Source of the DNA: an uncultured Woeseia sp.
GTDB taxonomy: Bacteria; Pseudomonadota; Gammaproteobacteria; Steroidobacterales; UBA11654
DNA: 64,000 bases
Direction of reading: 5' to 3'
Assembly (NCBI GenBank): GCA_964454905.1
Contig: CAYVTR010000007.1
Coordinates: forward strand, 369-64,368
Shown one piece after another: positions 2,232 through 25,023 of the stretch; the stretch's first letter is position 1, and every line of letters starts with the position of its first letter. Made by a program: the position numbers and the translations under genes. The notes beneath the pieces were generated by a model. It was not told where the DNA came from. It was given only the letters and a program-made list of their open reading frames with translations, and searched no databases.

Positions 2232-2242
2232 CGCTGATAAAT

Positions 2243-3382: not shown

Positions 3383-3433
3383 GCTGTTAAAACGTTAAAT
3401 ATATTAAACAAAAAATATTAAAACCTATTAAAA

Positions 3434-3481
3434 ACAATAATTTATAAAAAATCAATTTAAATATTGTTAAATTTATAAAAA
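3434..3481. promoter_or_regulatory. candidate operator/promoter repeats in the divergent regulator-aminotransferase intergenic region
   Basis: The 12-nt direct repeat AATTTATAAAAA occurs at 3439-3450 and 3470-3481, 31 bp apart. The inverted hexamers ACAATA (3434-3439) and TATTGT (3462-3467) are also present. The region is extremely AT-rich, so chance occurrence is possible. Confidence 0.3.
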
Positions 3482-4840: not shown

Positions 4841-4848
4841 AGAAGACC

Positions 4849-6351: not shown

Positions 6352-6363
6352 GAGGGGAAATAC

Positions 6364-9516: not shown

Positions 9517-10020
9517 ATGATTAGGAACAAATTTTTGATTTTATTTTTTATGGTACTTATTTTTCCTGTTTTGCTGAATGCACAAGGAAATAATGGAAGA
9601 GGAAAGTGCATGCAACCATTTGGTATCTCTTACTATCTGGTAGAAGGGGGAGACGAAGATGAGTGGCTTGAACTGTATATGAAGTGGCATTATCCTCTGA
9701 TGCAATATGCCTTAGATCATGGGTCTATTATTGAGCATAAACTTTTTGTGCCAGATGGTCATGGTATTGAAGCTCAATGGACATTTGCCGTTTCTTTTCT
9801 ATTTCCAAACTCACAAGAAAGCAAGCCCGCACCTTTAGGTCGAGCAGAATTAATTACAAAACTTTATGGCAATCAAATGGATGATTATATTGCTGGCGAA
9901 CAACGACGCTGGGAACTAACAACCAAACACTGGGACACTGATTTTATTGAGCTCGATAAGTCAGAAATCCCTCTTTCCGTATACAGACCTTCTTTAGGAG
10001 GCTGTGAAAAGAAAAATTAA
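9517..10020 (+). CDS. hypothetical exported protein
   Basis: The N-terminal signal-like segment is MIRNKFLILFFMVLIFPVLLNAQ. I recognise no family. Confidence 0.5.
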   Translation: MIRNKFLILFFMVLIFPVLLNAQGNNGRGKCMQPFGISYYLVEGGDEDEWLELYMKWHYPLMQYALDHGSIIEHKLFVPDGHGIEAQWTFAVSFLFPNSQESKPAPLGRAELITKLYGNQMDDYIAGEQRRWELTTKHWDTDFIELDKSEIPLSVYRPSLGGCEKKN

Positions 10021-10039
10021 CCACAGTTTAGGTATACCA

Positions 10040-10459
10040 ATGTTAACTGATAAAGAAAAACTAAAATTACTTGAAACACATAAGCCACCTTGCCTTGACA
10101 CTTTAAAGGGTAGGGCTACCCAATTGAATTCAGAAAAACAAACTGTAATTATGGAATTCGATGCTGTTCCTGAGTTTTGCCACTCTGAGGCACAAATAGT
10201 TCAGGGAGGGTTTATCACTGGGATGATGGATACTTGTATGGCCCATCTGCTTATAGCTTTGTTGGATTTTAAATTTAATCCAATGTCTTTGGACATCAAT
10301 GTTAGTTTCTTAGCTCCTGCACATCCAGGAATTTTAGTGGCCGAAGCGAAAATTCTTCGTATAGGTAAGAGCATTGCTTTTCTTTCTAGCACCTTGAGCC
10401 AGGGCGAGAAACTAGTCGCCACCTCAACCTCAACAATAAAGCTTATTCCTAGACTCTAA
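10040..10459 (+). CDS. PaaI-family (hotdog fold) thioesterase
   Basis: VQGGFITGMMDTCMAH and RIGKSIAFLSSTL are typical of PaaI/4HBT hotdog thioesterases. I chose the ATG at 10040 to avoid overlap with the upstream gene. The track ORF begins at a GTG at 10004. Confidence 0.65.
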   Translation: MLTDKEKLKLLETHKPPCLDTLKGRATQLNSEKQTVIMEFDAVPEFCHSEAQIVQGGFITGMMDTCMAHLLIALLDFKFNPMSLDINVSFLAPAHPGILVAEAKILRIGKSIAFLSSTLSQGEKLVATSTSTIKLIPRL

Positions 10460-10465
10460 TAGATA

Positions 10466-11395
10466 CTAGCCATCTACTGCCAAGATAGACTTTTCTGCAC
10501 TCCTAACCTTGGTTATCAGCATCGTACCTAATCCAATGATGAAGAGTGATAAATAAGGCTCGTAAGGCCAAAATGGCAGCCACAATACCAGATCTGAAGA
10601 CCACGCTGACGCGGTCAAAAAATCAGTAACACGTTCTTGCCAATAGAGCCCGGGAACTGACCAAATAAGACCAAAGACGATAATGATGCCGCCCAATGCC
10701 CTAAGTGCAAGCGGCATGTTGTTCTCAGCGGCATTCTTATTCGTGGTTTGCCAGCGTTGCTTGCCCCAGGCTGCAATTCTCAGTGCGAACGCAAGAAAAC
10801 CACCCCAGTAGTACACATAGTCAAGTGGTACCGGATTCTCATAACAGGAGAGCCCGTTACAGAGACTCCACCAATAGGTGCTAAAGGGATAGGCCCAGAG
10901 GAAATAGATCCCACTCTTGTGCAGCAACTTCCATTGTTTAGAGCTCAAGTGTTTACGGCCAAAGTGGAAAGATGTCACCACCATGGCGGGAAGAAAGATA
11001 TAGCCGATGCTCCCTTCTAGCTCATCACGAAACAGATAGACTTCTTCAAAGTAGTAATTGTGAAAAAAGTAAGACATTATAAAAATGAACAAGCCTTGCC
11101 ATGCCATGGCAACTGCAAAACATAATCCAATATATTTTCGGTTACGCATTAACCACATTGAGAAGGGTCCTGGATATAGAATCTGAATCGAAGATATTGC
11201 AACTACTAGATAGATGAAAGGCACTGCCCAGCGCACAGAAAACCCAATCATTTCTGACACACCAGATCCAGTTGACATATCAACCCCCATCATGGCAATG
11301 ACCATGATCATGCACATTGGAATAGAAATAAGCCAGAACAAATTCCATTTGTTAATGACTCTATTCTTTAATGTTGTTTTAAGATCAGTACTCAT
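10466..11395 (-). CDS. polytopic inner-membrane protein, unknown family
   Basis: 309 aa, Trp-rich, with about 8 hydrophobic segments. The 3' two-thirds of the gene is visibly more GC-rich than its surroundings. Confidence 0.6.
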   Translation of the reverse strand: MSTDLKTTLKNRVINKWNLFWLISIPMCMIMVIAMMGVDMSTGSGVSEMIGFSVRWAVPFIYLVVAISSIQILYPGPFSMWLMRNRKYIGLCFAVAMAWQGLFIFIMSYFFHNYYFEEVYLFRDELEGSIGYIFLPAMVVTSFHFGRKHLSSKQWKLLHKSGIYFLWAYPFSTYWWSLCNGLSCYENPVPLDYVYYWGGFLAFALRIAAWGKQRWQTTNKNAAENNMPLALRALGGIIIVFGLIWSVPGLYWQERVTDFLTASAWSSDLVLWLPFWPYEPYLSLFIIGLGTMLITKVRSAEKSILAVDG

Positions 11396-11500: not shown

Positions 11501-11722
11501 ATGGTCAATTTCATGAAACTAAAGGTTCTTCAAGCGATTAAAGTCATGATTGCTTTAGCACCTTGTTTGATCTCCATATACACACTCTATTGGCTTGAAT
11601 CCAATGAGATTTGGACCAGTGAAACTGCACACCGAGGTAAATTGTCATTTGTGACTTTAGTTATAGGGATGGGATTGTCATTTCTCATACAGTCTTATTT
11701 TAAGAAGCACCAGCAGAAATAA
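11501..11722 (+). CDS. small hypothetical membrane protein
   Basis: 73-aa ORF with two hydrophobic segments (IKVMIALAPCLISIYTLYWL and LSFVTLVIGMGLSFLI). No homolog recognised, so it could be spurious. Confidence 0.35.
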   Translation: MVNFMKLKVLQAIKVMIALAPCLISIYTLYWLESNEIWTSETAHRGKLSFVTLVIGMGLSFLIQSYFKKHQQK

Positions 11723-11733
11723 TTAAGCAATCG

Positions 11734-12369
11734 TTAGGTGTCATACCTAATAAATAAGTTACCTTCCATTTCTCTTTTGATACTTGTTTGCGGTCCATGA
11801 CCAGTAATCACAACGGTGGATTCATCCAAAGAATAAATCTTTTCCTGGATTGAGCTCTTAAGCATTTTAAAATCACCTCCAGGTAAATCAGTTCTTCCCA
11901 CAGATCCTTGAAACAAAGTATCACCAGCAATTAACAGTTTTTCTGATTCAAAATGGAAACTAACAGATCCAGGTGTATGCCCTGGTGTATGAATGCAAAC
12001 TCCTGAACAGTGAGTTAAATCTTGTTGATCTTCAATATTAAAATCAGGCGGTGGTGTGGGTTTAAAATCAATATTAAAATAACTGCATTGCATTTCTAGG
12101 GTGTCCCAAAGAAATCTATCGGATTCATTTAGGAAGATCGGTGCACCTGTTTTCTCTTTAATTTCTGCCGAAGCTAAGAAATGATCAAAATGGGCATGAG
12201 TATGATAAATAGCTTCAATGGATAAATTCATGCTGCTTATTGTTTCTAAAATTCTTTCTGCATCTCCGCCAGGGTCAATCAGATAACCTTTCCCAGTTGA
12301 GCTATTACCAATAATCGTGCAGTTGCACTGCAAAGGACCTACTGGGAATGATTTGTAATTAATTGTCAT
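11734..12369 (-). CDS. MBL-fold metallo-hydrolase, YcbL/GloC-like glyoxalase II
   Basis: HTHAHFDH metal motif, HTPGHTPGS, GDTLFQGSVGRTDLPGGD and ITGHGP. The 211-aa length matches the short GloC-type enzymes. Confidence 0.75.
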   Translation of the reverse strand: MTINYKSFPVGPLQCNCTIIGNSSTGKGYLIDPGGDAERILETISSMNLSIEAIYHTHAHFDHFLASAEIKEKTGAPIFLNESDRFLWDTLEMQCSYFNIDFKPTPPPDFNIEDQQDLTHCSGVCIHTPGHTPGSVSFHFESEKLLIAGDTLFQGSVGRTDLPGGDFKMLKSSIQEKIYSLDESTVVITGHGPQTSIKREMEGNLFIRYDT

Positions 12370-12410
12370 GTTATCTGAAGTGAATATGAAGCTATAATAA
12401 GTCCATTGTT

Positions 12411-14081
12411 ATGTATCAGTCCATAGAAAATTTATCCATTCAGAGACATTTTGTAAATCTGGGCTCTCGTCAAGTCCATTATAGAATCTCAGGCTCTGGG
12501 CCCGTTTTGGTTCTTTTACATCAAAGCCCAACATCATCAGCTGAGATGGCAACTGTTATTGAGAACTTAAGTGATGAGTTCACGGTTATTGCTCCTGATA
12601 CTCCAGGTTTTGGCCTGTCTGACTTCATTGATGGAATTGAGCCAGATATTTCACAATACGCAGAAGCTTTAAAGGAGTTTCTGGATGCATTAGAAATAAA
12701 CCAAGCTTGTTTTTATGGTTTTCATACGGGAGCAATCATAGCCACTGAAATCGCTCGTCTTTACCCAGAACTCTGTAATGCTGTGGTGGTAAATGGCTTA
12801 GTTGTTTTAGAGCCTGAAGAAGAAGCTGGCATCCTAAAACACTACACTAAATGGTTTGAGCCTACACCTGAAGGAAGTCAGATGTCATGGATTTGGTCAA
12901 GAATTAGAGACCAACTAATTTTTTTCCCTTGGTTTAAAAAAGAATTAGGAAATAAGATGAGTATTGATCTTCCAAACCCAGAATTCCTTCAGCCCTATAT
13001 TTTAGATTTACTTCGATCCAATGAGGCTTCACAAACAGCTTATCAGGCGGCTTTTTTATATCCCTCAAGGGAACGTATAAGAGAATTACAAGTCCCAACT
13101 TTTCTTATTAACCATGAGGGCGACCCAATCGCAGATCACCCCAGAAGACTCAGTAATCTACCAAATAATGTGGTTATTGAGCAGTTATCAGATCCAGTGG
13201 CAGTGGAAGAAAGGTCCAGAGAGATTTTTAACAAATATTCTGTAAATAAAGATTATATCCACAACAATACTAGCGATCGTTTGCGATCAGGAAAACAAGG
13301 GTTTGCACCAACGACTCATGGCTCTATCTATTATTCAGTTGAAGGTAATAATGTAGAAAACACAGTGCTTTTCCTTCATGATCTCGGTCAATCATCCAGA
13401 GCAGAATTATTTCATTCAATAAGGATAAAAGATTCATTAAAATTATACGTTGATCTTCCAGGACATGGCGAAACAGGACCAACGCATTTAACCAACTATT
13501 CTCCTCAATCAATAGTTGGAATGCTTAAAGAGACCCTTAATTATCTAGGTCTTTCAAATCTCTCCATTATCAGTGTTGGGGCTTCTGTACCTATCGCTTT
13601 ACGATTATCCGAACAAACAAATTTAACCATAGACAATCTAGTCTTAATAGATCCTTGGTGTTTAAGTGAGCTAGAAAAAGAAAAATATATTGAGAATTAT
13701 GTGCCTGACATTACACCCAGTCAATATGGAGAGCATCTTATGAGGTCCTGGTATTTTGCAAGAGACAGCGAACTTTTTTTCCCTTGGTTTGAAGCAAAAT
13801 CCTCGACTGCATTGAATCGTCCGCCAGATATTAAAGCTGAGAGTGTCCATGAAAAAGCAGTCGAAATTTTGAAAGCTGGGCCAGGATTAAAGCTAGTGGC
13901 AAAAGATTTGATTGGATATGATATTCGAGAGGATTTAGAAAATTTTTCTCAAAAGCTAACAATATTTATTTGGCAAGGTAACTTAAGAGAGATTTTTGCA
14001 GAAAGAATTAATAACCAACTAGATGATGTACAGATTAATTATTTACCAGAAGATAAAAATGACTGGTTAATTGAGTTTTAG
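12411..14081 (+). CDS. protein with two tandem alpha/beta-hydrolase-fold-like halves
   Basis: First half: PVLVLLHQSPTSSAEM...VIAPDTPGFGLSD...FYGFHTGAIIA. Second half: TVLFLHDLGQSS...YVDLPGHGETG...IISVGASVPIAL. Both halves are followed by a FFPWF motif. Confidence 0.65.
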   Translation: MYQSIENLSIQRHFVNLGSRQVHYRISGSGPVLVLLHQSPTSSAEMATVIENLSDEFTVIAPDTPGFGLSDFIDGIEPDISQYAEALKEFLDALEINQACFYGFHTGAIIATEIARLYPELCNAVVVNGLVVLEPEEEAGILKHYTKWFEPTPEGSQMSWIWSRIRDQLIFFPWFKKELGNKMSIDLPNPEFLQPYILDLLRSNEASQTAYQAAFLYPSRERIRELQVPTFLINHEGDPIADHPRRLSNLPNNVVIEQLSDPVAVEERSREIFNKYSVNKDYIHNNTSDRLRSGKQGFAPTTHGSIYYSVEGNNVENTVLFLHDLGQSSRAELFHSIRIKDSLKLYVDLPGHGETGPTHLTNYSPQSIVGMLKETLNYLGLSNLSIISVGASVPIALRLSEQTNLTIDNLVLIDPWCLSELEKEKYIENYVPDITPSQYGEHLMRSWYFARDSELFFPWFEAKSSTALNRPPDIKAESVHEKAVEILKAGPGLKLVAKDLIGYDIREDLENFSQKLTIFIWQGNLREIFAERINNQLDDVQINYLPEDKNDWLIEF

Positions 14082-14091
14082 GAGGAACAAG

Positions 14092-15666
14092 ATGTCTGAC
14101 ACGAATAAGAATGTTGTTAAAGTGCTTAAAGCAGCAGTAGGAAAAGATAATGTTTTGACAGATCAAGAATCCCTGTCTTTCTATTCAATGGATGTTTATC
14201 GATCTATAGAAACACCCATAGCAGTTGTTCAACCAGGATCCACAGAGGAGCTTCAAGAAGCTGTACGAGTAGCGACAGGTTTAGATGTTGCTATAGTAAC
14301 GCGTGGAGGAGGAGCATCATACACTGATGGCTACCTTCCCACCACTGCTGAATCAGTCATTGTCGATACTTCTCGACTTAATAAGATTCTTGAGATCAAT
14401 GAAGAGGACATGTTCATTACTGTTGAACCTGGGATTACTTGGGCGGAAATGACTGACGCATTAGCTGAGAGTAATTTAAGAACACCTTTTTGGGGACCCT
14501 TTTCAGGATTAAAAGCAACAGTTGGTGGTTCAACTTCACAAAATAGTGTAAGTATGGGAACCAGTAGATACGGAGGATCCCCAGAGTCAATACTTTGTTA
14601 TGACATTGTTTTAGCAAATGGCGATATTCTGAAAACAGGCTCTTCTGCAATGGAACAAAGTTCACCATTTTTCAGGCACTATGGACCCGATTTAACCGGC
14701 TTATTTTCTGGTGATGCTGGGTCATTGGGTGTTAAGGCAAAAATTACACTGCGTCTAATAAAGTTACCCAGTCATAGTCTCACTTGTTCTTTTGGTTTTA
14801 AGAGCTACGATGCCATGAGCCAGGCGATGGCAGCTGTAGCAAGAGAAGAGTCAGCTTCAAGTAATTGGGGCTTGGACCCTAAATTACAGCAGGGTCAGCT
14901 TGGTAGCACTTCATTCAGTGATGCGCTCAAAGCCGCTTTTGCTGTTTTAAAAACAGCTCGTAATCCATTTGAGGCTTTTGTTCAACTGGGTAAGATGGCC
15001 CTTGCAGGAAAGCGATTTTTAACTGGTTACGATTATTCAGCTCACTTTGTCGTAGACGGCTATTCAATCAGTGAAGTCAAAAGTAAATTGGCACAAACTA
15101 GAAAAGCACTGTCTCCTTACGGCACAGAAATTGCAAACACCATACCAACAGTTCTAGGCGCGATGCCTTTCATGCCTCTTTATCCTATTTTAGGACCTCA
15201 AGGAGAGAGGTGGGTTCCGATGCATGGCTTATTGTCTTTTTCAAAAATGCAGGAGATGCATCAGCGATTAATGGATCTTTACAGAGAAAAGAAAGGTGAA
15301 ATGGAAGAATGTTCAGTTTATGCAGGTGCAATGTATATGACGTATTCCACACATAGTTTCCTCTATGAGGTGGCTTTATATTGGCAAGACGATCGGACTG
15401 TTTATCATAAACTTTACTTGGATCAAGACTATCTTGATATGCTACCAACTTACCCTGAAAATAAAAAAGGCAGAGCTTTAGTTGCTGAACTTCGCGCTTC
15501 AATTCAGGAAATATATTCAGATCTTGGTGCCGTTCATTTTCAAGTAGGAAAGAGCTATCCATATCAAAAAGGCAGGCAAACTCTAGCCGCTGAAACTCTA
15601 AGGGCAATAAAGAAGTCGGTGGATCCAAAGAATCTAATGAATCCAGGAGCACTAGGCCTTGAATAG
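14092..15666 (+). CDS. FAD-binding (PCMH/VAO-type) FAD-linked oxidase
   Basis: The FAD-binding N-terminal domain (VVQPGSTEELQEAVRVA...IVTRGGGASYTDG) and the typical C-terminal tail KSVDPKNLMNPGALGL. I chose the ATG at 14092, which follows AGGAGG. The track starts at a TTG at 14071. Confidence 0.8.
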   Translation: MSDTNKNVVKVLKAAVGKDNVLTDQESLSFYSMDVYRSIETPIAVVQPGSTEELQEAVRVATGLDVAIVTRGGGASYTDGYLPTTAESVIVDTSRLNKILEINEEDMFITVEPGITWAEMTDALAESNLRTPFWGPFSGLKATVGGSTSQNSVSMGTSRYGGSPESILCYDIVLANGDILKTGSSAMEQSSPFFRHYGPDLTGLFSGDAGSLGVKAKITLRLIKLPSHSLTCSFGFKSYDAMSQAMAAVAREESASSNWGLDPKLQQGQLGSTSFSDALKAAFAVLKTARNPFEAFVQLGKMALAGKRFLTGYDYSAHFVVDGYSISEVKSKLAQTRKALSPYGTEIANTIPTVLGAMPFMPLYPILGPQGERWVPMHGLLSFSKMQEMHQRLMDLYREKKGEMEECSVYAGAMYMTYSTHSFLYEVALYWQDDRTVYHKLYLDQDYLDMLPTYPENKKGRALVAELRASIQEIYSDLGAVHFQVGKSYPYQKGRQTLAAETLRAIKKSVDPKNLMNPGALGLE

Positions 15667-15670: not shown

Positions 15671-17461
15671 ATGAAAAATTCAATAACCCTGCTACTGACC
15701 ATCCCTTTATTAGCCTGTTCTCAGTATTCTGATCAATTACAAACCAAACACCCTCCATACAATGAAAGACCTAGAGTAGGGGTTCTTTATGTGTCTCACG
15801 GAGGAAATGAAACGTATGGTGAAAAACAGGTTTGGGAATCCACTGTTCAAATTTTTTCGTACGATAAGAACAGTCCAGTCTATCAGCGAATTTTGTGGAA
15901 CCCTGATTATTGGCCTCAATTCTATGGATTTGGGAATGCGACAAAAGAAATAGGCAAGTATTCTTTTGAATATGAGCGAATAGGGGGTGTTGACCCCTAC
16001 CCGAAATCTAAAGCTGAACTCACTCAACATTTAGTTGAACTGATGAATGCTTATGAAAATAAATACGAAATGGATTTTATTGTAGATAAAATGTCTTGGT
16101 TAAGTCCCGAGATAGTCGAATTAGCCAATCCAAGAAGGCTGTACTACCCAGGAACAGAAGATGGCTCAATACTGGCTTATTGTGGCAAGGGAGATGACTC
16201 ATGGTTAGACTGTAATCCTGATCGATATGATATTGATGGACCCATCGAGAGACTTCTAAAGATAGGTGTTGAGCGATTTATAATTGTGGATCTAACAACA
16301 GCCGGTGCTCGTTTTTCTAAAACCTTCGACGTATACACCGTAGCTAAGCAGGTTATTGATAAGCATAATCAAGCCACAGGGGAAAACGTGGTTATTGAAT
16401 GGGTTAATGATCCAGATAATCTGATGGTGAAATCATACCCACAGGATGCATCTGGATGGACACGATCTAAGGGTAAACCTGAGATCAACCCAATTATTGC
16501 AATTTCAGATTTCCCTAATCCTGTTATTGAAGACCTGAGATTAGCTAAATTCCAAGTGGAGGGTATTGCATCACAATTTAATGAAAACGTGTCACTTAAG
16601 GACACGGGTGTTCTCATGATTAATCACGGAATTCGAAATGGTGATGAAGTATTTGATCCAAAAATTAACGACACGCTTACTCTTAATAAGAACATTAAAA
16701 ATCTCTTACTTCAAAACTTTCCTGAATTAAAAACACAAAATATTTTAGGAGGTTGGTTTGGTGAAATGGTTATCAATCAAAGAGTGAAACCATCCCCACC
16801 GGCTTTCACACAAATGGAAAGGACTCGGGAAATGCGAGGAGAGAATTTAGGTTATATCGTCCTTCATGACAGCGATGGTGAAGTACCAGCAGGTGAATGG
16901 GGTTATCGTTATTGGGAAGCTCTTGATCAACTAAAGAAAAATAAAGTCAAGCATATCGTCATTGTATTTCCTCAAATCATGGAAAATTCTGTTTTAAACC
17001 TTGTTGAAGTTCCCAATCAGATAGCCAAAGAGATTGGTTATAAGAATTGGCTGCATTTCGATACATTGGATTTTGATACCTACCCAGAATACGGTCACCC
17101 CTTTGCTGATTATTGGGGAATATGGGTGTCAACGTCATGTGCTATTCCTTCGGATACTAATCAATCTGAGCAGTGTTGTTTAACCATGGGGGGTTGCTCA
17201 ACTGGGCAATCATACCCACCACCTCGGCAAGCTAAGCTTAATGAGAGACGCAATGATCTAGATCCTTCTTTGGCTTATGATGTTTCTGAATTTGGGCACT
17301 TAGGCTATAGGTCTGCGTTAGGTGCTCCAAATCTCAGTCAACCCGTCCAAAATCAATATTCAGGAACTTGGTCAATGTGGAAAGTGACCGAAGATCACCA
17401 CGCTTTAGCTAAGTTTCTTGCAGATAAGGTCGTTGAACATATAGAATCAAGTCAAAATTAA
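15671..17461 (+). CDS. lipoprotein with ferrochelatase/CbiK-like (class II chelatase) two-lobe architecture and Cys-rich C-terminus; function unknown
   Basis: Lipobox in MKNSITLLLTIPLLAC-SQ. By-eye similarity to ferrochelatase blocks (GVLYVSHGG; YERIGGVDPYPKSKAELTQHL; GVERFIIVDLTTAGARFS; GVLMINHGI; KHIVIVFPQIMENSVLNLVEV). Five Cys occur in STSCAIPSDTNQSEQCCLTMGGCSTG. Confidence 0.5.
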   Translation: MKNSITLLLTIPLLACSQYSDQLQTKHPPYNERPRVGVLYVSHGGNETYGEKQVWESTVQIFSYDKNSPVYQRILWNPDYWPQFYGFGNATKEIGKYSFEYERIGGVDPYPKSKAELTQHLVELMNAYENKYEMDFIVDKMSWLSPEIVELANPRRLYYPGTEDGSILAYCGKGDDSWLDCNPDRYDIDGPIERLLKIGVERFIIVDLTTAGARFSKTFDVYTVAKQVIDKHNQATGENVVIEWVNDPDNLMVKSYPQDASGWTRSKGKPEINPIIAISDFPNPVIEDLRLAKFQVEGIASQFNENVSLKDTGVLMINHGIRNGDEVFDPKINDTLTLNKNIKNLLLQNFPELKTQNILGGWFGEMVINQRVKPSPPAFTQMERTREMRGENLGYIVLHDSDGEVPAGEWGYRYWEALDQLKKNKVKHIVIVFPQIMENSVLNLVEVPNQIAKEIGYKNWLHFDTLDFDTYPEYGHPFADYWGIWVSTSCAIPSDTNQSEQCCLTMGGCSTGQSYPPPRQAKLNERRNDLDPSLAYDVSEFGHLGYRSALGAPNLSQPVQNQYSGTWSMWKVTEDHHALAKFLADKVVEHIESSQN

Positions 17462-17482: not shown

Positions 17483-18346
17483 ATGTCAATCAAGTTATTA
17501 AGGAGAGATTTTCTTATGGGTCTTGGTTTGGCTACTGTTTTAGCATCAGATAATACCAAGAGTATAGTCAGTGGAAGCATACCAAGTTCAGCTCCTGACT
17601 TGAGTTTACCGGTGAATAATTTAATTAACTTAATACGAATGCAATCAAGCTTAGGAAATGAGGATCAGGTGCCGTGGCATTATAATGGCACGCTCTATTT
17701 TCAAAAAGGCTCTGAACAACCAATTCCAATGATCAAGATAGAAGGGATGGAGAGTTACAAGGTCATCCCTCAAGAAGACGGTTCTTATGAGATTTTAGGC
17801 AATATGCTGACTTTTTTTAGGGATTTAGACTCCGGCGAAATGATTAGGGAATTTAAGAATCCGTTTACTGGGGAAGTTAATAGAATATTACCTAACATTA
17901 GACGAGCAAGCTTAGGCAGAGGATTGAATATCTCAACCATGGGTGTGAGGCCAACTGCCTTTATTGAGAAAATGGCTGATGATCCTTTAATTTTAGATTG
18001 GACATTTGGCCCCAAGACCATTTGGCTGCATAATCAAACAGCATACCCACCTGGACTATCTGCTCCAAGGATGCAACGCATGACAATGTTTGCACCAATA
18101 GAAGAGTTCCTAGATAAAGAGGCTCTCTCTTTGTCAACCATGTTCACTGCCACCGTTTTAATGCCGTGGCTTCCATGGATGGGCATGGATAATATTGAAG
18201 GCCATACTCTTTGGCATGCATCAGGGGTTAAATTAAACTCAATTGACCAGCTTCCAGAAGAATATTACACAAGAATGATGGAAGAGCACCCAGAGTTATC
18301 TAGATTTAACCTGCAAGAAGACACTGGTCCAGTTATTTATGAATGA
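17483..18346 (+). CDS. Tat-exported DUF1838-like protein
   Basis: Twin-arginine signal MSIKLLRRDFLMGLGLATVLAS. The core GTLYF...IEGMESYKVIPQEDGSYEILGNMLTFFRDLDSGEMIREFKNPFTGEV matches my recollection of the DUF1838 pattern. Confidence 0.55.
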   Translation: MSIKLLRRDFLMGLGLATVLASDNTKSIVSGSIPSSAPDLSLPVNNLINLIRMQSSLGNEDQVPWHYNGTLYFQKGSEQPIPMIKIEGMESYKVIPQEDGSYEILGNMLTFFRDLDSGEMIREFKNPFTGEVNRILPNIRRASLGRGLNISTMGVRPTAFIEKMADDPLILDWTFGPKTIWLHNQTAYPPGLSAPRMQRMTMFAPIEEFLDKEALSLSTMFTATVLMPWLPWMGMDNIEGHTLWHASGVKLNSIDQLPEEYYTRMMEEHPELSRFNLQEDTGPVIYE

Positions 18347-18361: not shown

Positions 18362-18814
18362 ATGATCACTTTTGAAAATCTAAGTTTATTTATCCTAGTT
18401 CTCTTGATGGGCTGCAGTGATCAAAAGAGTGTTGACAATGATCAACAGGACATTGCATTAGCTAATACAGTTGATACAAGAGAACTAATCACTATTGATG
18501 GCGATTTAGAAAGGGGTAGAAAGCTTTATTTGCAATGCCGTGCATGCCATTCATTAAAAGAAAATGAGCCTCACAAAATAGGTCCTAATTTGTTTAAAAT
18601 AATTGGCTCAACAGCAGGCAGCATGAAAGGCTATAATTACTCAGATGCTTTATCAAAGAGTGAAATTCTTTGGACTATAGAAAACCTTGATCTTTGGTTA
18701 GAGAAACCTTATGAGATTATCCCTGGTAATAAAATGGTTTTTTCTGGTATGAGAAAACAAGAAGACAGAAATGATTTAATTGCATACGTTTATGATGAAA
18801 CCTCTGAGGAATAA
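18362..18814 (+). CDS. class I c-type cytochrome (cytochrome c2-like), lipoprotein
   Basis: Lipobox LVLLMGC-SD. Haem motif CRACHSL followed by HKIGPNL, and a distal Met context PGNKMVFSG. Confidence 0.85.
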   Translation: MITFENLSLFILVLLMGCSDQKSVDNDQQDIALANTVDTRELITIDGDLERGRKLYLQCRACHSLKENEPHKIGPNLFKIIGSTAGSMKGYNYSDALSKSEILWTIENLDLWLEKPYEIIPGNKMVFSGMRKQEDRNDLIAYVYDETSEE

Positions 18815-18880: not shown

Positions 18881-19558
18881 ATGAGTTCAGATACTTTTCT
18901 AGGAATGCTTGCAGATTCACCATTCTCTGGACTACAAGATCATATGGCGCTGGGCAATAAAGCCACAGACTCGCTGGAAAAATTTTTAACCGCTGTTTCC
19001 CAATCAGATTGGAGCACTGCTTTAGAATGCAGAGAGGAAATTGTTCATTTAGAGAACCAAGCGGATGACATAAAAAATAATATTCGAAACAACCTTCCAA
19101 CATCACTTTTTATGAGTGTTTCAAGACAGGATTTATTGGATTTAGTGTTTACAATGGATGGCATTCCTAATGCAGCAAAAGATATTTCAGGGGTAATGAT
19201 TGGGAGAAAAATGGAAATCCCAAAAGAGATCCTAGAAAGTTTTATTGATTGTTCTAAGGCTGCCATCAAAGCAGCCAATCAAGCATCCGATGCGATTAGA
19301 AAAGTAGACGGCATGCAAAAAAGAGGTTTTGGTTCTCGTGATGCATCAGCATTAAGTGAGCTCGTCGTTGAATTAGAGCAAATGGAAAGAGAAAACGATG
19401 AATTAGAAATAGCCTTACGCAATAAATTTTTTGAATATGAGAAACAACACGATCCTGTAGAAGTTATGTTTTTCTATGATGTAATCAATAAAATTGGTTC
19501 CCTTGCAGATATTTCTCAAACTGTAGGACATCTTCTGGTGCGTTTAGTATCAAAATGA
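18881..19558 (+). CDS. DUF47 / TIGR00153-family PhoU-like phosphate transport regulator
   Basis: Colinear with the E. coli/B. subtilis DUF47 proteins that precede pit genes (SPF..LQDHM...; LFMSVSRQDLLDLV; PVEVMFFYDVI..IGSLAD). Confidence 0.8.
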   Translation: MSSDTFLGMLADSPFSGLQDHMALGNKATDSLEKFLTAVSQSDWSTALECREEIVHLENQADDIKNNIRNNLPTSLFMSVSRQDLLDLVFTMDGIPNAAKDISGVMIGRKMEIPKEILESFIDCSKAAIKAANQASDAIRKVDGMQKRGFGSRDASALSELVVELEQMERENDELEIALRNKFFEYEKQHDPVEVMFFYDVINKIGSLADISQTVGHLLVRLVSK

Positions 19559-19575
19559 TTTAAGGAAAAAGATTA

Positions 19576-20841
19576 ATGGAAATAATTATGGAATATGGCT
19601 ATATCTTGCTGATTATTGGCTGTGTTTGTGGTTTCTTTATGGCTTGGGGTATTGGTGCAAACGATGTTGCTAATGCTATGGGCACTTCTGTAGGTGCTAG
19701 AGCATTAACTTTATGGCAAGCTGTTTTAGTCGCATGTGTGTTTGAATTTGCAGGCGCTTATCTTGCAGGTGGCGAAGTTACATCAACAATTCGTAAGGGA
19801 ATCATTGATGCAGGAGTTATGTCTGACAGTCCTGAATTATTGGTTTATGGAATGATCGCTTCATTGCTAGCTGCAGGAATTTGGTTATTAATTGCTTCTT
19901 ACTTTGGTTGGCCTGTTTCAACAACTCATTCCATTGTGGGAGCAATAGTTGGGTTTGCTGCTGTGGGCATAGGCTTTGATGCTGTAAAATGGGGACAAGT
20001 TGGCTCAATTGTTGCCAGTTGGGTAGTGTCACCAGTTATGGCTGGGACAATTTCTTTTCTGTTATTCACAAGTGTTAAAAGATTAATTCTGCAAACTTCA
20101 GATCCTTTTATGAGTGCAAAAAGATATGTTCCTTTCTATATGTTTCTTGCTGGTTTTGTTGTTTCAATGGTGACTTTTTTAAAAGGTCTAAAACATGTTG
20201 GCCTAAGTTTTACTGCATCTGAAAGCATTGCATGGTCACTTGTCTTTGCTTTGATCATTTCTTTATTAGGAACACTGATGTTGCAAAGAATTGATAACAC
20301 AAGAAAAGAAAAGAATGGCGCTATGTTTAATGGCGTTGAAAGAGTTTTTGCAGTTCTCATGGTGTTTACAGCTTGTGCCATGGCTTTTGCTCATGGATCA
20401 AATGATGTGGCTAATGCCATAGGTCCTCTAGCAGCAATTGTTTCAGTAGTGCAAAGTGGAGGAGAGATAGCCTCTAAATCAATGTTGCCGCCATGGGTCT
20501 TATTGATCGGAGCATCAGGTATTGTTATTGGATTGGGTACGCTTGGTTACAGAGTCATGATGACCGTGGGCAGAGCCATTACAGAACTCACTCCAAGCAG
20601 AGGTTTTGCAGCTGAACTAGCGGCTGCAGGAACAGTTGTTATTGCTTCCGGAACAGGCCTACCAATCTCGACAACACATACCCTCGTTGGAGCAGTTCTA
20701 GGTGTTGGTTTAGCTAGAGGCATCGGCGCGATTAATTTAGGTGTGGTTGGGAAAATTATCCTATCTTGGATTGTAACTTTACCAGTGGGTGCTGGTTTGT
20801 CTATTCTGTTTTTCTTTGCATTAAAGGGAGCTTTTGGTTAA
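19576..20841 (+). CDS. inorganic phosphate transporter, PiT family
   Basis: The duplicated signature GANDVANAMGTSVG / GSNDVANAIGPL. 421 aa and polytopic. Confidence 0.9.
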   Translation: MEIIMEYGYILLIIGCVCGFFMAWGIGANDVANAMGTSVGARALTLWQAVLVACVFEFAGAYLAGGEVTSTIRKGIIDAGVMSDSPELLVYGMIASLLAAGIWLLIASYFGWPVSTTHSIVGAIVGFAAVGIGFDAVKWGQVGSIVASWVVSPVMAGTISFLLFTSVKRLILQTSDPFMSAKRYVPFYMFLAGFVVSMVTFLKGLKHVGLSFTASESIAWSLVFALIISLLGTLMLQRIDNTRKEKNGAMFNGVERVFAVLMVFTACAMAFAHGSNDVANAIGPLAAIVSVVQSGGEIASKSMLPPWVLLIGASGIVIGLGTLGYRVMMTVGRAITELTPSRGFAAELAAAGTVVIASGTGLPISTTHTLVGAVLGVGLARGIGAINLGVVGKIILSWIVTLPVGAGLSILFFFALKGAFG

Positions 20842-20847
20842 TTGAAA

Positions 20848-21912
20848 ATGACAATAAAAATGATACATTCTCTATCATTCTTATTCTTAGGACTCTTAAT
20901 AATTCACTCTGATTCCACACAGGCATCGAATATAGAGACATCATTTGATTTTAGATTTCGTTATGATTACACAGATGATGATAGCAATTCTACAAAACGT
21001 AGACGGAACAGAATACGCACAAGACTAGGCGCTCAATATTCGCCTAATGAACGATTAAAAATCAAAATCAGGTTTGCTACAGCCGAGGAAAACACCACAG
21101 GTGCTAATCAAACTCTTGGCCATGATTTTAGTTTAAGTGATATTGGTATGGATCAGTTATATATTAATTTTTCGCTAATGGGTAATACTTATATTTCACT
21201 TGGTAAAATGACTAATCCTTTCTTTAAACCTAATAAAAGCGAGTTACTTTTCGATGCAGATTACACTCCTGAGGGAGTGGCTTTATCTTTTAATGAAGGT
21301 GATATTTTTGGCAACATTGGGTTTTTTAAGTTTGATGAAAGTTCATCGAAAACATCTAATATTCTTGGTTTTCAGATTGGCTTAAGCAATAAAATCACAA
21401 ATCAAACAAGTTATAAGATTGCTCTTGCTCAATATAACTTTGATGATATTAAGGGCAGATCTGCGTCTGATATTACTTGGAATGGCAAAATATTTGGCAA
21501 CCCTGTTGATGCCAATAATAACTACCTGAATAATTATAATGTCACCAATTTCTCTGCTGAGATTCAGACAAAATTAGGTACGGATACAATCCCAACAACA
21601 ATTTTTTTAGATGTTGCAAGGAACTCTAAAGCACATGACAATGATCTGGGTTTTCAAATAGGAGCCAAACTGACTTTAAGTGATCTTTGGAACGTTGCCT
21701 ATCTTTATAAGGACGTCGAGAAAAATGCTGTTTTTGGCGCTTTAACTCATTCAGATTTTGGAGGAGGTGGCGTAGGTCATAAAGGACATCAGCTTAATGT
21801 TGGCTATACTTTTTCAAAAAAACTTAGTGTTGAATTCATTTGGTTTGATAATAAGAAAGAGATGAAAATTGATTATAAAAAAGCTTTTTTTGACCTTAAG
21901 TATAAGTTCTAA
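20848..21912 (+). CDS. putative outer-membrane beta-barrel porin
   Basis: Signal peptide (MTIKMIHSLSFLFLGLLIIHSDSTQA), alternating beta-strand pattern, and a C-terminal aromatic residue (..FFDLKYKF). Its position after pit suggests anion/phosphate entry, which is inference. Confidence 0.55.
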   Translation: MTIKMIHSLSFLFLGLLIIHSDSTQASNIETSFDFRFRYDYTDDDSNSTKRRRNRIRTRLGAQYSPNERLKIKIRFATAEENTTGANQTLGHDFSLSDIGMDQLYINFSLMGNTYISLGKMTNPFFKPNKSELLFDADYTPEGVALSFNEGDIFGNIGFFKFDESSSKTSNILGFQIGLSNKITNQTSYKIALAQYNFDDIKGRSASDITWNGKIFGNPVDANNNYLNNYNVTNFSAEIQTKLGTDTIPTTIFLDVARNSKAHDNDLGFQIGAKLTLSDLWNVAYLYKDVEKNAVFGALTHSDFGGGGVGHKGHQLNVGYTFSKKLSVEFIWFDNKKEMKIDYKKAFFDLKYKF

Positions 21913-21919
21913 GAGCAAG

Positions 21920-22864
21920 TTAGTTGGTTCCCCATCCTCCCTCTGAGTAACCTTTAGGTAGACCAGAATCTACAGTAAAACCATAGAGTTCTTCGTTAGG
22001 AAGGCACGTCTTAACAATTCTATTAACTTCTATTAAGGCTTCAAGATCAATGCCTGTTTTTAGCCCCATTGAGTCGAGCATAAACACTAAATCTTCAGTG
22101 ACGATGTTGCCACTAGCACCTGGTGCAAAAGGACAGCCGCCAATTCCACCAAGAGATGAATCTAAGGTCATGATCCCTTCCTCAAGAGAAGCAAGAGCAT
22201 TAGCCAGTCCTAGCCCTCTAGTATTATGCAGATGCATACTGGTTAAATTATTATGGCCAATTTCTTTTTTGAGTAAACGAATTAGTCTTTTGATTTGTGC
22301 CGGATTTGCATAACCAGTTGTATCAGATAGACCCACTTCATCACAGCCCAATTCCATCATTTTAACACCTAGAGAGACCACATCTTTTTCAGAAACTTTT
22401 CCTTCAATAGTGCACCCAAAAGCAGTGGATAAATTACCCTCAAACTCCGGTCTCTCATTTTCATTTAGAGTGTTTAAGTACTCAGTAATTTTTCCAATTT
22501 CTTTCAAAACTTCATCATGGGTTTTTTTTAAATTTGCTTGACTGTGAGTTTCACTAACAGACAAGGGTAGACACATTTTATCAACCCCTGCATCAATGGC
22601 ATTTTTTGCTCCTATAAAATTAGGAACTAAGGCCACAACAGTAAGATTTGGAAGGCTTTTTGCATATTTAACAATCTCTGAAGTATCCGCCATTTGTGGT
22701 AACAAGTTTGGTGGAACAAAAGAACCCACTTCAATTTCTCTAACTCCTGCTTCTGCCTCAGCTTTTATCCATTTTTTCTTGTCACTAGTAGACATAATGG
22801 TATCTATACTTTGTAAACCGTCTCTTGGTCCAACTTCACTCACTAATACATCAATATCAGACAT
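21920..22864 (-). CDS. hydroxymethylglutaryl-CoA lyase family (HMGL-like) enzyme
   Basis: EVGPRDGLQS, EVGSFV, MHLHNTRGLGLANA and GGCPFAPGASGN are typical of HMG-CoA lyase. Confidence 0.85.
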   Translation of the reverse strand: MSDIDVLVSEVGPRDGLQSIDTIMSTSDKKKWIKAEAEAGVREIEVGSFVPPNLLPQMADTSEIVKYAKSLPNLTVVALVPNFIGAKNAIDAGVDKMCLPLSVSETHSQANLKKTHDEVLKEIGKITEYLNTLNENERPEFEGNLSTAFGCTIEGKVSEKDVVSLGVKMMELGCDEVGLSDTTGYANPAQIKRLIRLLKKEIGHNNLTSMHLHNTRGLGLANALASLEEGIMTLDSSLGGIGGCPFAPGASGNIVTEDLVFMLDSMGLKTGIDLEALIEVNRIVKTCLPNEELYGFTVDSGLPKGYSEGGWGTN

Positions 22865-22892
22865 ATCCTTCCTTATATATTTTCAACATAGG

Positions 22893-24164
22893 TTATTTTA
22901 CTTTATTTGAACATTGGCGATCACTTAGCTCATCAAGACCCAACGCTTCCTTCATAATAAAAAATATATCAGTGTTATCCATTACACCTGCTATATTTTC
23001 TGCACCTGGGCCAAAAGCAAATGCTGGAATCATTGTTCCTGTGTGGGTTCCTAATCCCACAGCGGTGTTCCACGAAATTTTCATCTTGTTGCTGGGTTCA
23101 GGGTCTCTGTTCCAATCATCTGTTTCTATAAGAAGCCCCCCTGTTTCATGGTCTGAGAGAACGATTACTAATGTGTTTTGATCTGATTTAGCATATTCCA
23201 GTGCACGGTTCACAACTTGATCAAACTCATCCATCTCTTTAAATACACCATTAAAATCATTCTCATGTCCTTCCCAATCTATTTGAGAACCCTCGGTCAT
23301 TATAAAAAAACCAGCACAATTATTTACCAGCATCTTTTTAGATTGCTCTAAAGTGAAATTAAACATTTCTAAAAGATTGGGTTCATTATCTTCCCTGACA
23401 AAGCCTTCTTTTGCGAATAGACCAAAAATTCTTTTTGATGGATCAAATTGAAAATTATTGAAATCACCTTTCGATTCCAAGTAACTCTCTTCCTCTTTTA
23501 TTAAACTAAGAATATCGAAATTATCTTCTCTTTGACCTCCTAGGTCTTCAGGGACAAAGAAATCTCGTCCTCCGCCTAGTGAAATAAAATTATTAGACCT
23601 AAACATTGCTTCAGCTATCTGATCAGTGTTGTCTCTTGATTCATTATGAACTACAAATGCAGCAGGTGTTGCGTGAGTAATTTCAGATGTTGCAACTAGG
23701 CTAGTCACATACCCTTTTTCATGTAACATTTCAGTTATATTTCTTACTACTTGTTTATCCTTATTAACGCCTAAGTATCCATTAACAGTTTTAATACCAG
23801 AGCTATAAGCTGTAGCAGAGGAGGCAGAATCAGTGATTAAAGTGTCGACAGCATGTGTTTTAATTAAACCTGAAAAGGGGAATTTATCGAAAGCTGAAAT
23901 ATAATTTGGCCCACCTTTTGCAATTCTATAAGCGGTTACTTGATTAATTCCCATGCCATCACCAATTAAAAGAATTATATTTTTAGCTTTTTTATCTACT
24001 GTTTTTAATTTTTTTTTAGTAACGCTCTGGTCAAAATTAATCTGAATTTCTTGAGTATCTTTGTTGGGGACTAGGATGATGAATGGTGCAATTTGCATCA
24101 ATGCAACAATAGTCACGGAAGAGGTGATTAGAATGATAGACAGGTATTTGAAAAATGACTTCAC
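22893..24164 (-). CDS. phoA: alkaline phosphatase (PhoA family), exported
   Basis: LLIGDGMGINQ, the nucleophile-Ser motif TDSASSATAYSSGIKT, and DWEGHEND. The N-terminus is a hydrophobic signal/anchor. Confidence 0.8.
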   Translation of the reverse strand: MKSFFKYLSIILITSSVTIVALMQIAPFIILVPNKDTQEIQINFDQSVTKKKLKTVDKKAKNIILLIGDGMGINQVTAYRIAKGGPNYISAFDKFPFSGLIKTHAVDTLITDSASSATAYSSGIKTVNGYLGVNKDKQVVRNITEMLHEKGYVTSLVATSEITHATPAAFVVHNESRDNTDQIAEAMFRSNNFISLGGGRDFFVPEDLGGQREDNFDILSLIKEEESYLESKGDFNNFQFDPSKRIFGLFAKEGFVREDNEPNLLEMFNFTLEQSKKMLVNNCAGFFIMTEGSQIDWEGHENDFNGVFKEMDEFDQVVNRALEYAKSDQNTLVIVLSDHETGGLLIETDDWNRDPEPSNKMKISWNTAVGLGTHTGTMIPAFAFGPGAENIAGVMDNTDIFFIMKEALGLDELSDRQCSNKVK

Positions 24165-24970
24165 TTAGGGTCTAGCGCATCTAATTTTTTTCTCAGGATA
24201 GCTTCACTAGGTTGCCCGAAATCAAAATCTATGATTGCTCCTTCCCATGCTCCATACATTGGATTCGAGAGCATGTACCATGATGTGCCCCAATATTTTG
24301 AGTATTTCTTTATGGTTTCGACTCTGTCTTTGGGAGAGAGCAGATTTTCATTGATGTCTACAAAGTCGCCAAAATTATCTCCAAACATCATCACTATACG
24401 ATAATCTTTTGCAATCAATTCTCTTCTTGATGATTTATTAGATCCCCAACCGTTTTCCCCTCGAGATAAAACATGATCTTCTGAAGAACCGTTGAAACCA
24501 AGGGCTATATAATTATTGATTGTTGCTTTTTCTATCTCAAGATCTCGGTTGGTCACAAAAAATATTTCTACACCTTTTGATTGTGCATATTCCATGAACT
24601 CAAGTACACCAGGCATAAATTCTGCCTTCTCTTCTTTTGCCCAATCAAACCAGCCATCTGGATAAGAAGTTTCTTTTTCAATGATTCTCGCCTGATATGC
24701 ACTGTTGTCTAATACTGTCTGATCGACATCAAGGATAATTGCTGGTGGTTTGTCACTGAAGTTTTCTAACTGTTCAAGTGCTGCCGTATGATTGTTATCT
24801 GACAATAATGCATCTAAATTATTTTGAGCTGCTCGATAAATGGTGCTTGAATTTGCATAAAACTCTGCAGAAGATTGAACATATAAAGTAGCCATTAGTA
24901 ATTCATGATCTTTTTCACTCGCATGAATGCTCAATGGAATCATTAACAAAAGTAAGAAGAGATTTTTCAT
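24161..24970 (-). CDS. HAD-superfamily class B/C acid phosphatase (e(P4) 5'-nucleotidase-like), exported
   Basis: Signal MKNLFLLLLMIPLSIHA, the DDDD-type motif ILDVDQTVLDNSAY, FVTNR and MFGDNFGDF. I placed the start at the ATG at 24968-24970. The track extension to 25033 overlaps leuD. Confidence 0.75.
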   Translation of the reverse strand: MKNLFLLLLMIPLSIHASEKDHELLMATLYVQSSAEFYANSSTIYRAAQNNLDALLSDNNHTAALEQLENFSDKPPAIILDVDQTVLDNSAYQARIIEKETSYPDGWFDWAKEEKAEFMPGVLEFMEYAQSKGVEIFFVTNRDLEIEKATINNYIALGFNGSSEDHVLSRGENGWGSNKSSRRELIAKDYRIVMMFGDNFGDFVDINENLLSPKDRVETIKKYSKYWGTSWYMLSNPMYGAWEGAIIDFDFGQPSEAILRKKLDALDPK

Positions 24971-25023
24971 AGCGACATCATAAACTATTTGATTCCAAAA
25001 ACATCTATTTTGGGATTGCTTTT

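Follow-up and report, generated by a model that had tools for sequence, protein, structure and literature searches.

A predicted exported ferrochelatase-fold protein with a remodelled active site from Woeseia, representing a previously undescribed protein family of marine and sediment bacteria

In the textbook view, class II chelatases act in the cytoplasm in the synthesis of haem, sirohaem, B12 and F430. To our knowledge, the exported members known so far are only small proteins of the CbiK type, namely CbiK(P) of Desulfovibrio vulgaris (PDB 2xvx/2xvz) and FetB/IhtB, a surface lipoprotein of Porphyromonas gingivalis (PDB 9B86), and their roles with respect to haem and iron are debated. Here we analyze a gene for an exported protein of different ancestry, located in a stretch of 64,000 nucleotides from an uncultured Woeseia sp. 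(assembly GCA_964454905.1, contig CAYVTR010000007.1; the whole stretch is referred to as the window). The gene occupies positions 15671..17461 including the stop codon (+ strand), which are the limits given in a preliminary description of this DNA, and encodes a protein of 596 residues (the target), as established from the list of open reading frames (ORFs), its homologues and a fold assignment. In all likelihood the target belongs to the class II chelatase superfamily, as a highly divergent member with a fold closest to that of ferrochelatase.

The two exported CbiK-type proteins bind metalloporphyrins outside the cytoplasm and have been discussed as chelatases or reverse chelatases (PMC13065792, PMC12094164). 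They share export with the target, and CbiK(P) is its best fold match outside the ferrochelatases. However, they are proteins of ~270 residues that belong to the genuine CbiK family (37% identity to Salmonella CbiK) and have a His-His site in one lobe, whereas the target family belongs to the ferrochelatase branch, is twice as long and has one His in each lobe. The iht operon of IhtB moreover includes genes for a TonB-dependent receptor and an iron/haem ABC transporter, whereas the target family shows no link to uptake genes. Ferrochelatase itself (HemH/CpfC/FECH; PF00762, TIGR00109) has the same two-lobe fold and the same strand order as the target, but is cytoplasmic or matrix-facing rather than exported. 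It comprises ~310-360 residues, compared with 596 in the target, which holds four large insertions; a length of about twice that of HemH, with large insertions, had been noted previously. The proximal Tyr/Met and the catalytic Glu of ferrochelatase are replaced by His and Leu in the target, the propionate-binding Arg/Ser residues by Phe/Ser, Glu/Gln and Asp, and the target has six Cys of disulfide type.

A second point of comparison is provided by the ancestral homodimers CfbA and CbiX-S, in which an 'HG' motif on both halves of the cleft creates a symmetric His arrangement resembling that of the target (PMC11301274). CfbA differs in being a small homodimer with a second His (His75) per half, whereas the halves of the target are fused and diverged and are without a second ligand at least in the C-terminal lobe; in SirB the corresponding C-lobe positions are Arg134 and Leu200 (PMC11301274). 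A natural class II chelatase that is monomeric and has four active-site His is not known (PMC11301274), a gap that the target does not fill.

Fold, sequence relationship and export

The fold assignment is based on a template-free AlphaFold2 model built from an alignment of 26 family members, with a mean predicted local distance difference test score (pLDDT) of 80 and a predicted template modelling score (pTM) of 0.86. In a Foldseek comparison of this model with the PDB, matches 1-44 were all ferrochelatases, from human, yeast, B. subtilis, B. anthracis and L. monocytogenes, with E values of 4.7e-9 to 5e-6, a probability of 1.00 and Foldseek 'on target' template modelling (TM) scores of 0.53-0.68. 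The next matches, at E 2.6e-3 to 8e-3, were CbiK proteins, that of the Desulfovibrio periplasm among them, followed by noise; periplasmic binding proteins were far behind, at E 2e-2 against 5e-9 for ferrochelatases.

The modelled structure consists of duplicated, Rossmann-like alpha/beta lobes, each with a cleft-facing h-h-h-x-H-G motif ending its first strand (LYVSHGG and LMINHGI), a feature of the superfamily. Each lobe is predicted to contain four strands in the chelatase order, at residues 35-44, 135-144, 202-207 and 241-244 in the N-terminal lobe and at 312-318, 358-362, 428-432 and 566-569 in the C-terminal lobe. The N-terminal lobe of four strands plus helices, delimited by DSSP assignment of the model and by profile alignment (E=9e-5), spans residues ~33-300 (15767..16570, +) and holds a long aromatic-rich insertion (residues 46-100) and a Cys171-Cys181 loop. 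The first part of the C-terminal lobe (residues ~301-457; 16571..17041, +), defined by DSSP and conservation, includes an insertion with the invariant sequence ERTRxMRGENLG. It is followed by an insertion of ~100 residues with a Cys-rich hairpin (458-565; 17042..17365, +; from pLDDT and DSSP), the first 28 residues of which have low model confidence, and then by the last C-lobe strand (566-569) and a C-terminal helix (576-595) that closes the modelled structure (17366..17458, +).

Sequence comparisons pointed in the same direction at much lower signal. A phmmer search of all PDB sequences gave one sub-threshold match, the M76H variant of human ferrochelatase (4kmm), based on VLYVSHGGNETYGE versus ILMLNHGGPETLGD (VSHGGNET versus LNHGGPET). 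For profile-profile alignment with hhalign, ferrochelatase was represented by three sequences (1ak1_A, 2qd3_A and E. coli HemH); a wider ferrochelatase profile added no diversity, nearly all of its 120 listed matches being close Bacillus or Enterobacteriaceae relatives. The family aligned with ferrochelatase at E=6.7e-4 over the full length and at E=9.4e-5 (probability 59%) for the N-lobe alone, pairing GVLYVSHGG with GLLVMAYGT, YERIGGVDP with YEAIGGISP, and GVERFIIVDLT with GITEAVSIVLA. In the C-lobe, KHIVIVFPQIMENSVLNLVEV...KEIG was paired with QAFVYVPVGFVADHLEVLYDN...DDIG in the beta7/helix region (E=7e-3 and 5e-4), and the aligned segments fall in the correct order along the chain. The target block FPQIMENSVLNLVEV aligns with VPVGFVADHLEVLYD of HemH.

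The preliminary description had likewise proposed a ferrochelatase-like two-lobe architecture, from five blocks paired by eye with B. subtilis HemH. All five of these HemH blocks are exact substrings of PDB 1ak1_A. The first three pairings were reproduced by hhalign and the fifth with a shift of one residue, whereas the fourth (GVLMINHGI versus MLIVSAHSL) was recovered by no sequence method, including hhalign restricted to the C-lobe. Raw identity across the five paired blocks is 16 of 82 positions, which alone is not above chance, and the significance of the blocks derives from the profile and fold evidence. The architecture proposed earlier is supported by the Foldseek result, and searches of Pfam, NCBIfam and the PDB returned no unrelated characterized family.

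Three results weigh against this placement. A Pfam scan of the target gave nothing at E<=1, including neither PF00762 nor PF06180. In NCBIfam the only match was TIGR00109 (hemH), at E=0.05 and 13 bits compared with a cut-off of 124.6. A profile of the 26 family members found no PDB sequence at E<=10, so that the family cannot be placed by sequence alone.

In the N-terminus of the target, MKNSITLLLTIPLLAC-SQ, a short, polar n-region containing a single Lys precedes a hydrophobic core and the lipobox L-L-A-C16, in conformity with the bacterial lipobox pattern [LVI][ASTVI][GAS]C after a hydrophobic signal. The predicted Sec/SPII signal peptide, with Cys16 as the candidate lipidated residue, occupies 15671..15718 (+) as read from the sequence, and the lipobox is the one named in the preliminary description. 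A Sec-type signal, with either a lipobox or an AxA site, is found in 69/69 genome-derived members of the family, in agreement with the location outside the cytoplasm that had been suggested for the target. Lipoboxes are limited to roughly one third to one half of the family, the other members having AxA cleavage sites. Judged from these signals, export is a family trait and lipidation is not universal in the family; for the target itself an extracytoplasmic location is very probable.

Residues of the inter-lobe cleft

Conservation was counted in 75 aligned members, comprising the 69 genome-derived sequences and divergent database representatives. His43 and His319, the His of the 'HG' motif in each lobe, are invariant (75/75), and His428 is kept in 74/75. 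His43 in LYVSHGG (15797..15799, +) is placed by hhalign, and by the phmmer match to 4kmm, at the position of B. subtilis Tyr13, L. monocytogenes Tyr12 and human Met76, the proximal axial position; the one open paper that used the human M76H variant contains no statement on haem ligation. His319 in LMINHG (16625..16627, +) directly follows the predicted strand 312-318, the first of the C-lobe, and would be the topological equivalent of ferrochelatase His183/His263, although sequence alignments leave it unpaired. In coproheme-bound LmCpfC Tyr12 on the proximal side and His182 on the distal side lie 2.7 A and 3.2 A from the iron, on opposite faces (PMC7340540). With His43 at the Tyr12 position and His319 at the His182 position, the target would have His at both of the metal-flanking positions.

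The position of the catalytic Glu (Glu264 in B. subtilis, Glu343 in human) is occupied according to hhalign by Leu442 (16994..16996, +), a residue that is Leu in 74/75 members; a shift of one residue would place the variable Asn443 (N/D/S/T) there. The acidic DHLE-type motif, already reported as not obviously retained, is indeed absent, and the loss of the catalytic Glu reinforces the earlier view that an exported version would have a different job. The same C-lobe position would be expected to provide the second metal ligand within a lobe (His75/76, CbiK His207, HemH Glu264) and holds Leu442 instead. In the N-lobe Arg214 is a candidate for the second-ligand position by motif spacing only. Only the first His seems to be retained in each lobe, which leaves the canonical two-ligand metal site incomplete in the C-lobe.

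The propionate-binding site is altered as well. The propionate binders of LmCpfC are Arg29, Arg45, Tyr46, Ser53 and Tyr124 (PMC7340540). At the positions of B. subtilis Arg30/31, Arg46, Tyr47 and Ser54 the target has F62/S63, E100, Y101 and D108, with position 100 being E in 50 and Q in 16 of the 75 members and position 108 being D in 63 and S in 11. Only Tyr101 and the IGG-x-x-P backbone motif are kept, the latter within YERIGGVDP (15971..15997, +), which hhalign aligns with the propionate-binding loop YEAIGGISP of ferrochelatase; the basic residues are gone. Taken together, the target is most likely not a canonical ferrochelatase.

Distribution, operon and recurrent neighbours

Full-length homologues of the target number 628 in the protein database, all unnamed or 'hypothetical' and nearly all of 585-630 residues. 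When 1.84 billion cluster representatives were scanned exhaustively with HMMER, only 148 clusters were retrieved, mostly fragments and with ~10 full-length clusters at 38-48% identity, none of which bridges to canonical ferrochelatases. In a collection with one genome per species, a relative is encoded by 180/185,579 species. The carriers include Woeseiaceae, metagenome-assembled genomes (MAGs) labelled Chromatiales or Chromatiaceae, Steroidobacteraceae, Ca. Foliamicus and other marine Gammaproteobacteria, together with Rhodospirillaceae, other Alphaproteobacteria and some Thermodesulfobacteriota; a cultured carrier is Oceanicoccus sagamiensis (BST96_02805), and a few genomes have two copies of the gene. 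A literature search found no description of a bacterial exported ferrochelatase-like family. The family occurs in bacteria of marine and sediment habitats and is previously undescribed; it has no name and is covered by no model in Pfam or NCBIfam. As a new branch of the class II chelatase superfamily it is separate from the exported members of CbiK type. It is set apart by its ferrochelatase-branch origin and doubled size, its constant export, its remodelled active site and its links to electron carriers and DUF1838.

In the window the target lies in a tight string of genes on the + strand in the order alpha/beta hydrolase, flavin adenine dinucleotide (FAD) oxidase, target, DUF1838 and cytochrome c. 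The first of these (12411..14081, +) encodes a 556-residue protein with two alpha/beta-hydrolase domains, identified by Pfam and by synteny among Woeseiaceae; its 3' end overlaps the start of the FAD-oxidase gene by 11 nt, and it is probably the first gene of the target's operon. The FAD-oxidase gene (14071..15666, +) encodes a cytoplasmic FAD-linked oxidase of VAO/PCMH type (Pfam FAD_binding_4; PDB relatives glycolate oxidase and p-cresol methylhydroxylase). The sequence places the ATG of the target 4 nt after the oxidase stop codon, and an in-frame alternative TTG start is present at 15659. The DUF1838 gene (17483..18346, +; Pfam E=6e-18), with the twin-arginine signal RRDFLMGLG, starts 22 nt past the target stop codon and has its own Shine-Dalgarno sequence, and it is followed by a gene for a class I cytochrome c lipoprotein with a CRACH haem motif (18362..18814, +; Pfam and NCBIfam matches). 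A scan of the operon region for promoters and terminators gave counts equal to those in shuffled sequence and is hence uninformative.

Conservation of this arrangement was evaluated by calling ORFs in 81 loci, clustering them by BLASTP and mapping the neighbours onto 12 sub-clades (55% identity), with a bulk Pfam scan of the 138 genes directly flanking the target in 80 loci. The contexts of the first two distant homologues had shown no conserved neighbours, and the pattern emerged only after all loci were clustered. DUF1838 is the most frequent neighbour, adjacent in 25-27 loci from at least five sub-clades, including Woeseiaceae, a Foliamicus-like group, Rhodospirillaceae and locus L055, and it is always preceded by a twin-arginine signal. 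A model of the DUF1838 protein (m4fe759fce7bd, pLDDT 86) is an all-beta barrel in which the invariant H241 and H245 are predicted to lie in the last long strand. A fold search of the PDB with this model gave no confident relative, with a best TM of 0.28 (PsbO, lipid-transfer barrels, a Riemerella haemophore), and no PDB sequence relative or informative literature on DUF1838 was found.

Redox proteins recur beside the target. A VAO/PCMH-type FAD oxidase is encoded directly upstream in 18-22 loci from three sub-clades, and a class I cytochrome c lipoprotein gene follows DUF1838 in Woeseiaceae loci, including the window. In six loci of another sub-clade, a lipoprotein of the high-potential iron-sulfur protein (HiPIP) type with a twin-arginine translocation (Tat) signal is encoded directly downstream of the target; these loci also hold a major facilitator superfamily (MFS) transporter, a Rieske/VanA-type oxygenase and a secreted DUF4440 protein. 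In the Thermodesulfobacteriota-related protein P0126 (986 residues), an N-terminal haem region with four CXXCH motifs is fused to the family domain. Locus L086 contains tandem P0126 genes (495-3455 and 3606-6566) that are 99.9% identical and have Asp-rich repeats, representing a recent duplication or an assembly repeat.

A second set of neighbours belongs to tetrapyrrole-related families. A protein of the ferredoxin-dependent Fe_bilin_red family is encoded directly downstream in locus L081 (7059-7823; 55.8 bits versus a cut-off of 31), and a weaker, sub-threshold one lies near the target in L070 (5788-6543; 23 bits). Loci L081 and L070 are paralogous target loci of one non-photosynthetic Thermodesulfobacteriota MAG. 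Secreted proteins of the CpeT/CpcT family occur near the target in L066, L068 and L083 (25, 23 and 21 bits versus a cut-off of 21). These CpeT/CpcT (bilin lyase, DUF1001) proteins have ~345 residues, are from Rhodospirillaceae and are encoded at 11608-12648, 9801-10832 and 10107-11153, respectively. Exported alpha/beta hydrolases of the chlorophyllase family are encoded directly downstream in L066, L077 and L079 (34-61 bits versus a cut-off of 26). One locus has a haem-binding ChaN neighbour, and in Rhodospirillaceae the haem A synthase gene ctaA lies two to three genes from the target, with a TldD-like gene nearby.

In Thermodesulfobacteriota the target gene is followed by two tandem genes for Tat-signal proteins of ~225 residues (L070, 6865-7524 and 7552-8214; L072, 2030-2713 and 2738-3409), which share conserved FPCPY, WC and C motifs and have no Pfam or PDB match. 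A relationship of DUF1838 to these proteins was rejected, as only the signal peptide aligns, and so was a relationship of DUF1838 to the CpeT/CpcT-like neighbours (hhalign E=0.11). The general pattern is that of a Sec-exported chelatase-like protein followed by a small Tat-exported partner.

Proposed function and alternatives

We tentatively propose that the target is a periplasmic, redox-linked protein that binds a tetrapyrrole or a metal. The absence of the catalytic Glu and the presence of electron-carrier neighbours make the handling of metals or tetrapyrroles outside the cytoplasm, rather than the making of haem, probable. In the composite mechanism that we envisage, the scaffold would no longer perform canonical iron insertion, and the inter-lobe cleft would accommodate a ligand that contains a metal; haem or another (metallo)tetrapyrrole would be the most likely candidate. 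H43 and H319 would approach this ligand from opposite faces, at the positions taken by the proximal Tyr and distal His in complexes of ferrochelatase with its product. The target would work in the periplasm with a Tat-exported partner, DUF1838 in the case of the window, and would exchange electrons with the lipoprotein cytochrome c or, in other lineages, with HiPIP or the fused multihaem domain. The six invariant Cys would form three disulfides that close variable surface loops, and no cluster. We regard the case for a tetrapyrrole as the ligand as evenly balanced.

A narrower and rather doubtful form of this proposal is that the target is a haemoprotein or tetrapyrrole-processing enzyme derived from ferrochelatase, in which catalysis was lost and a second axial His gained, the tetrapyrrole became a redox cofactor or substrate, and the protein became connected to DUF1838 and to an electron carrier (cytochrome c, HiPIP or a fused multihaem domain). 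Such a protein could be a new periplasmic b-type cytochrome or oxidoreductase, or alternatively a redox-driven dechelatase with which marine bacteria would recover the metal or the macrocycle of haem or chlorophyll derivatives present in the environment.

A number of observations count against a redox-linked tetrapyrrole-binding function. The equivalence of His319 to the distal His rests on predicted topology only, given that no sequence method aligns the block containing it, and the changes among the propionate binders mean that a porphyrin could not bind in the canonical manner. The neighbourhoods are heterogeneous. Fusion to a cytochrome domain is confined to one lineage, the tetrapyrrole-flavoured neighbours are few and some are near threshold, and the 'chlorophyllase' proteins also match generic lipase, PAF-AH and PETase families. 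No TonB-dependent receptor, haem ABC transporter or Feo system is recurrent among the 138 flanking genes of the 80 loci. Many neighbours instead suggest catabolism of small organic molecules, including the VAO-type FAD oxidase, Rieske/VanA oxygenase, a luciferase-like monooxygenase, a short-chain dehydrogenase/reductase (SDR), MFS transporters and alpha/beta hydrolases.

These neighbours contribute to an alternative that we consider possible, if on the unlikely side, in which the fold has been re-purposed for a function unrelated to tetrapyrroles. The ligand would then be a free metal ion, for example in an oxidation of Fe(II) that feeds cytochrome c or HiPIP, or an organic substrate of anionic or aromatic nature, handled jointly with the oxidases and hydrolases encoded nearby, among which a metallo-beta-lactamase-type (MBL) hydrolase also recurs. 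Periplasmic dehydrogenases and oxidases typically pass their electrons to carriers such as HiPIP and cytochrome c. The losses of the catalytic Glu and of the propionate binders are in line with this alternative, as are the acidic E100 and D108 near the cleft and the conservation at 97% or more of ~94 positions, many of them Arg, Asp, Glu, Asn or Trp, a charged and aromatic set typical of an elaborate enzyme active site. Nevertheless, the fold match is specific to ferrochelatases, by the E values of 5e-9 against 2e-2 for periplasmic binding proteins, the two invariant His are predicted to fall exactly at axial-ligand positions, and neighbours of the bilin-reductase, CpcT, ChaN and chlorophyllase families are hard to explain otherwise.

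A role as a genuine chelatase or dechelatase of the periplasm is unlikely. This alternative would have the electron carriers set the redox state of the metal, for instance by reducing ferric haem before iron release, with H319 and/or H43 acting as metal ligand or base. HiPIP and class I cytochrome c are high-potential carriers, however, and reduce haem iron poorly. Further against it, the second canonical ligand (Glu264 in HemH, His75/76 in CfbA/SirB) is Leu442 in nearly all members, the propionate binders are not kept, and recurrent TonB receptor, ABC transporter or Feo genes are missing beside the gene. On the other side are the ferrochelatase/CbiK fold, the tetrapyrrole-related neighbours in several lineages, the presence in both lobes of the class II metal site's first His, reminiscent of the symmetric CfbA homodimer (PMC11301274), and the precedent of exported chelatases with measured activity, FetB/IhtB and CbiK(P), for which such a role has been proposed (PMC13065792, PMC12094164).

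The Cys residues bear on whether the target might carry a metal cluster. According to the preliminary description the protein ends with five Cys; the stretch in question, STSCAIPSDTNQSEQCCLTMGGCSTG (residues 487-512; 17129..17206, +), contains four and is followed by 84 further residues. In the model this stretch (STSC...GGCSTG) sits in the insertion 458-565, between the pi-helix-equivalent helix and the last beta-strand. The mature protein has six Cys (171, 181, 490, 502, 503 and 509), each invariant in 75/75 members. Some ferrochelatases carry a [2Fe-2S] cluster, among them those of animals and of some Actinobacteria and Proteobacteria, which likewise have extra Cys in the C-terminal third. 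An Fe-S cluster or other metal centre in the target is nevertheless very improbable. Four invariant Cys within 20 residues (C-x11-CC-x5-C) and two further invariant ones elsewhere would suit such a centre. However, the Cys of the [2Fe-2S] enzymes are in a C-terminal extension with another pattern, whereas those of the target are in an internal insertion before the last strand and in variable loops, and every family member has a Sec rather than a Tat signal, while Fe-S proteins need Tat export. The spacing of C490 and C502 ranges from 4 residues (P0123) to ~90 (P0126), and the C171-C181 loop (16181..16213, +) takes an insert of ~90 residues, the size of a domain and similar to that of P0126, in P0125; such variation fits loops closed by disulfides. 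On the grounds of Sec export and variable loop lengths the cluster was rejected. The invariant Cys, even in number and separated by variable loops in a protein exported by Sec and not by Tat, probably form three structural disulfides, 171-181, 490-502/503 and 503/502-509. Of the options listed earlier for these residues, a cluster, a metal site or disulfides, the last is the most likely and the Fe-S cluster is unlikely.

The ~90-residue inserts represent a shared module (G.TG.I..V...SGSW...DAAG.I.L....GSFTD.EL) placed in two different Cys-bounded loops, 171-181 in P0125 and 490-502 in P0126, and P0123 and P0126 have an additional C-terminal Ig-like domain.

That the resemblance to ferrochelatase is due to chance or is an artefact of the model is the least credible alternative of all, since the raw block identity of ~20% and the failure of every hidden Markov model library to recognize the protein are outweighed by the sole sub-threshold phmmer (PDB) and NCBIfam matches both being ferrochelatase, by hhalign E values of 9e-5 and 5e-4 in correct chain order, and by a template-free model of pTM 0.86 with 44 consecutive ferrochelatase matches at probability 1.00.

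If a tetrapyrrole is bound, the target would show how a biosynthetic chelatase scaffold has been turned into an extracytoplasmic cofactor-binding or salvage protein, and would provide a first context and functional handle for DUF1838. Among abundant bacteria of marine and sediment habitats, including Woeseiaceae, sponge-associated Gammaproteobacteria and Rhodospirillaceae, it could bear on the turnover of haem or chlorophyll derivatives or on the redox chemistry of metals. If no tetrapyrrole is bound, a chelatase fold would have been re-used for new chemistry.

Two further gene groups of the window flank the operon. Downstream is a phosphate-themed region (18881-25033) with genes for a PhoU_div/DUF47 protein (18881-19558), a Pit/PHO4 transporter (19576-20841) and a Porin_5 protein (20842-21912) and, on the - strand and in the window only, for an alkaline phosphatase (22893-24164) and a class B acid phosphatase (24161-25033). 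The PhoU_div, Pit and porin genes adjoin the target in Woeseiaceae loci only, and a phosphate-related role of the target was set aside in view of this restricted synteny. Upstream are genes for a secreted protein of 167 residues with no family match (9517-10020, +) and for a membrane protein of 309 residues with sub-threshold similarity to MsrQ, a haem-b subunit (10466-11395, -; E=1.6e-6), both of which recur as a conserved pair upstream of the operon in loci of Woeseiaceae.

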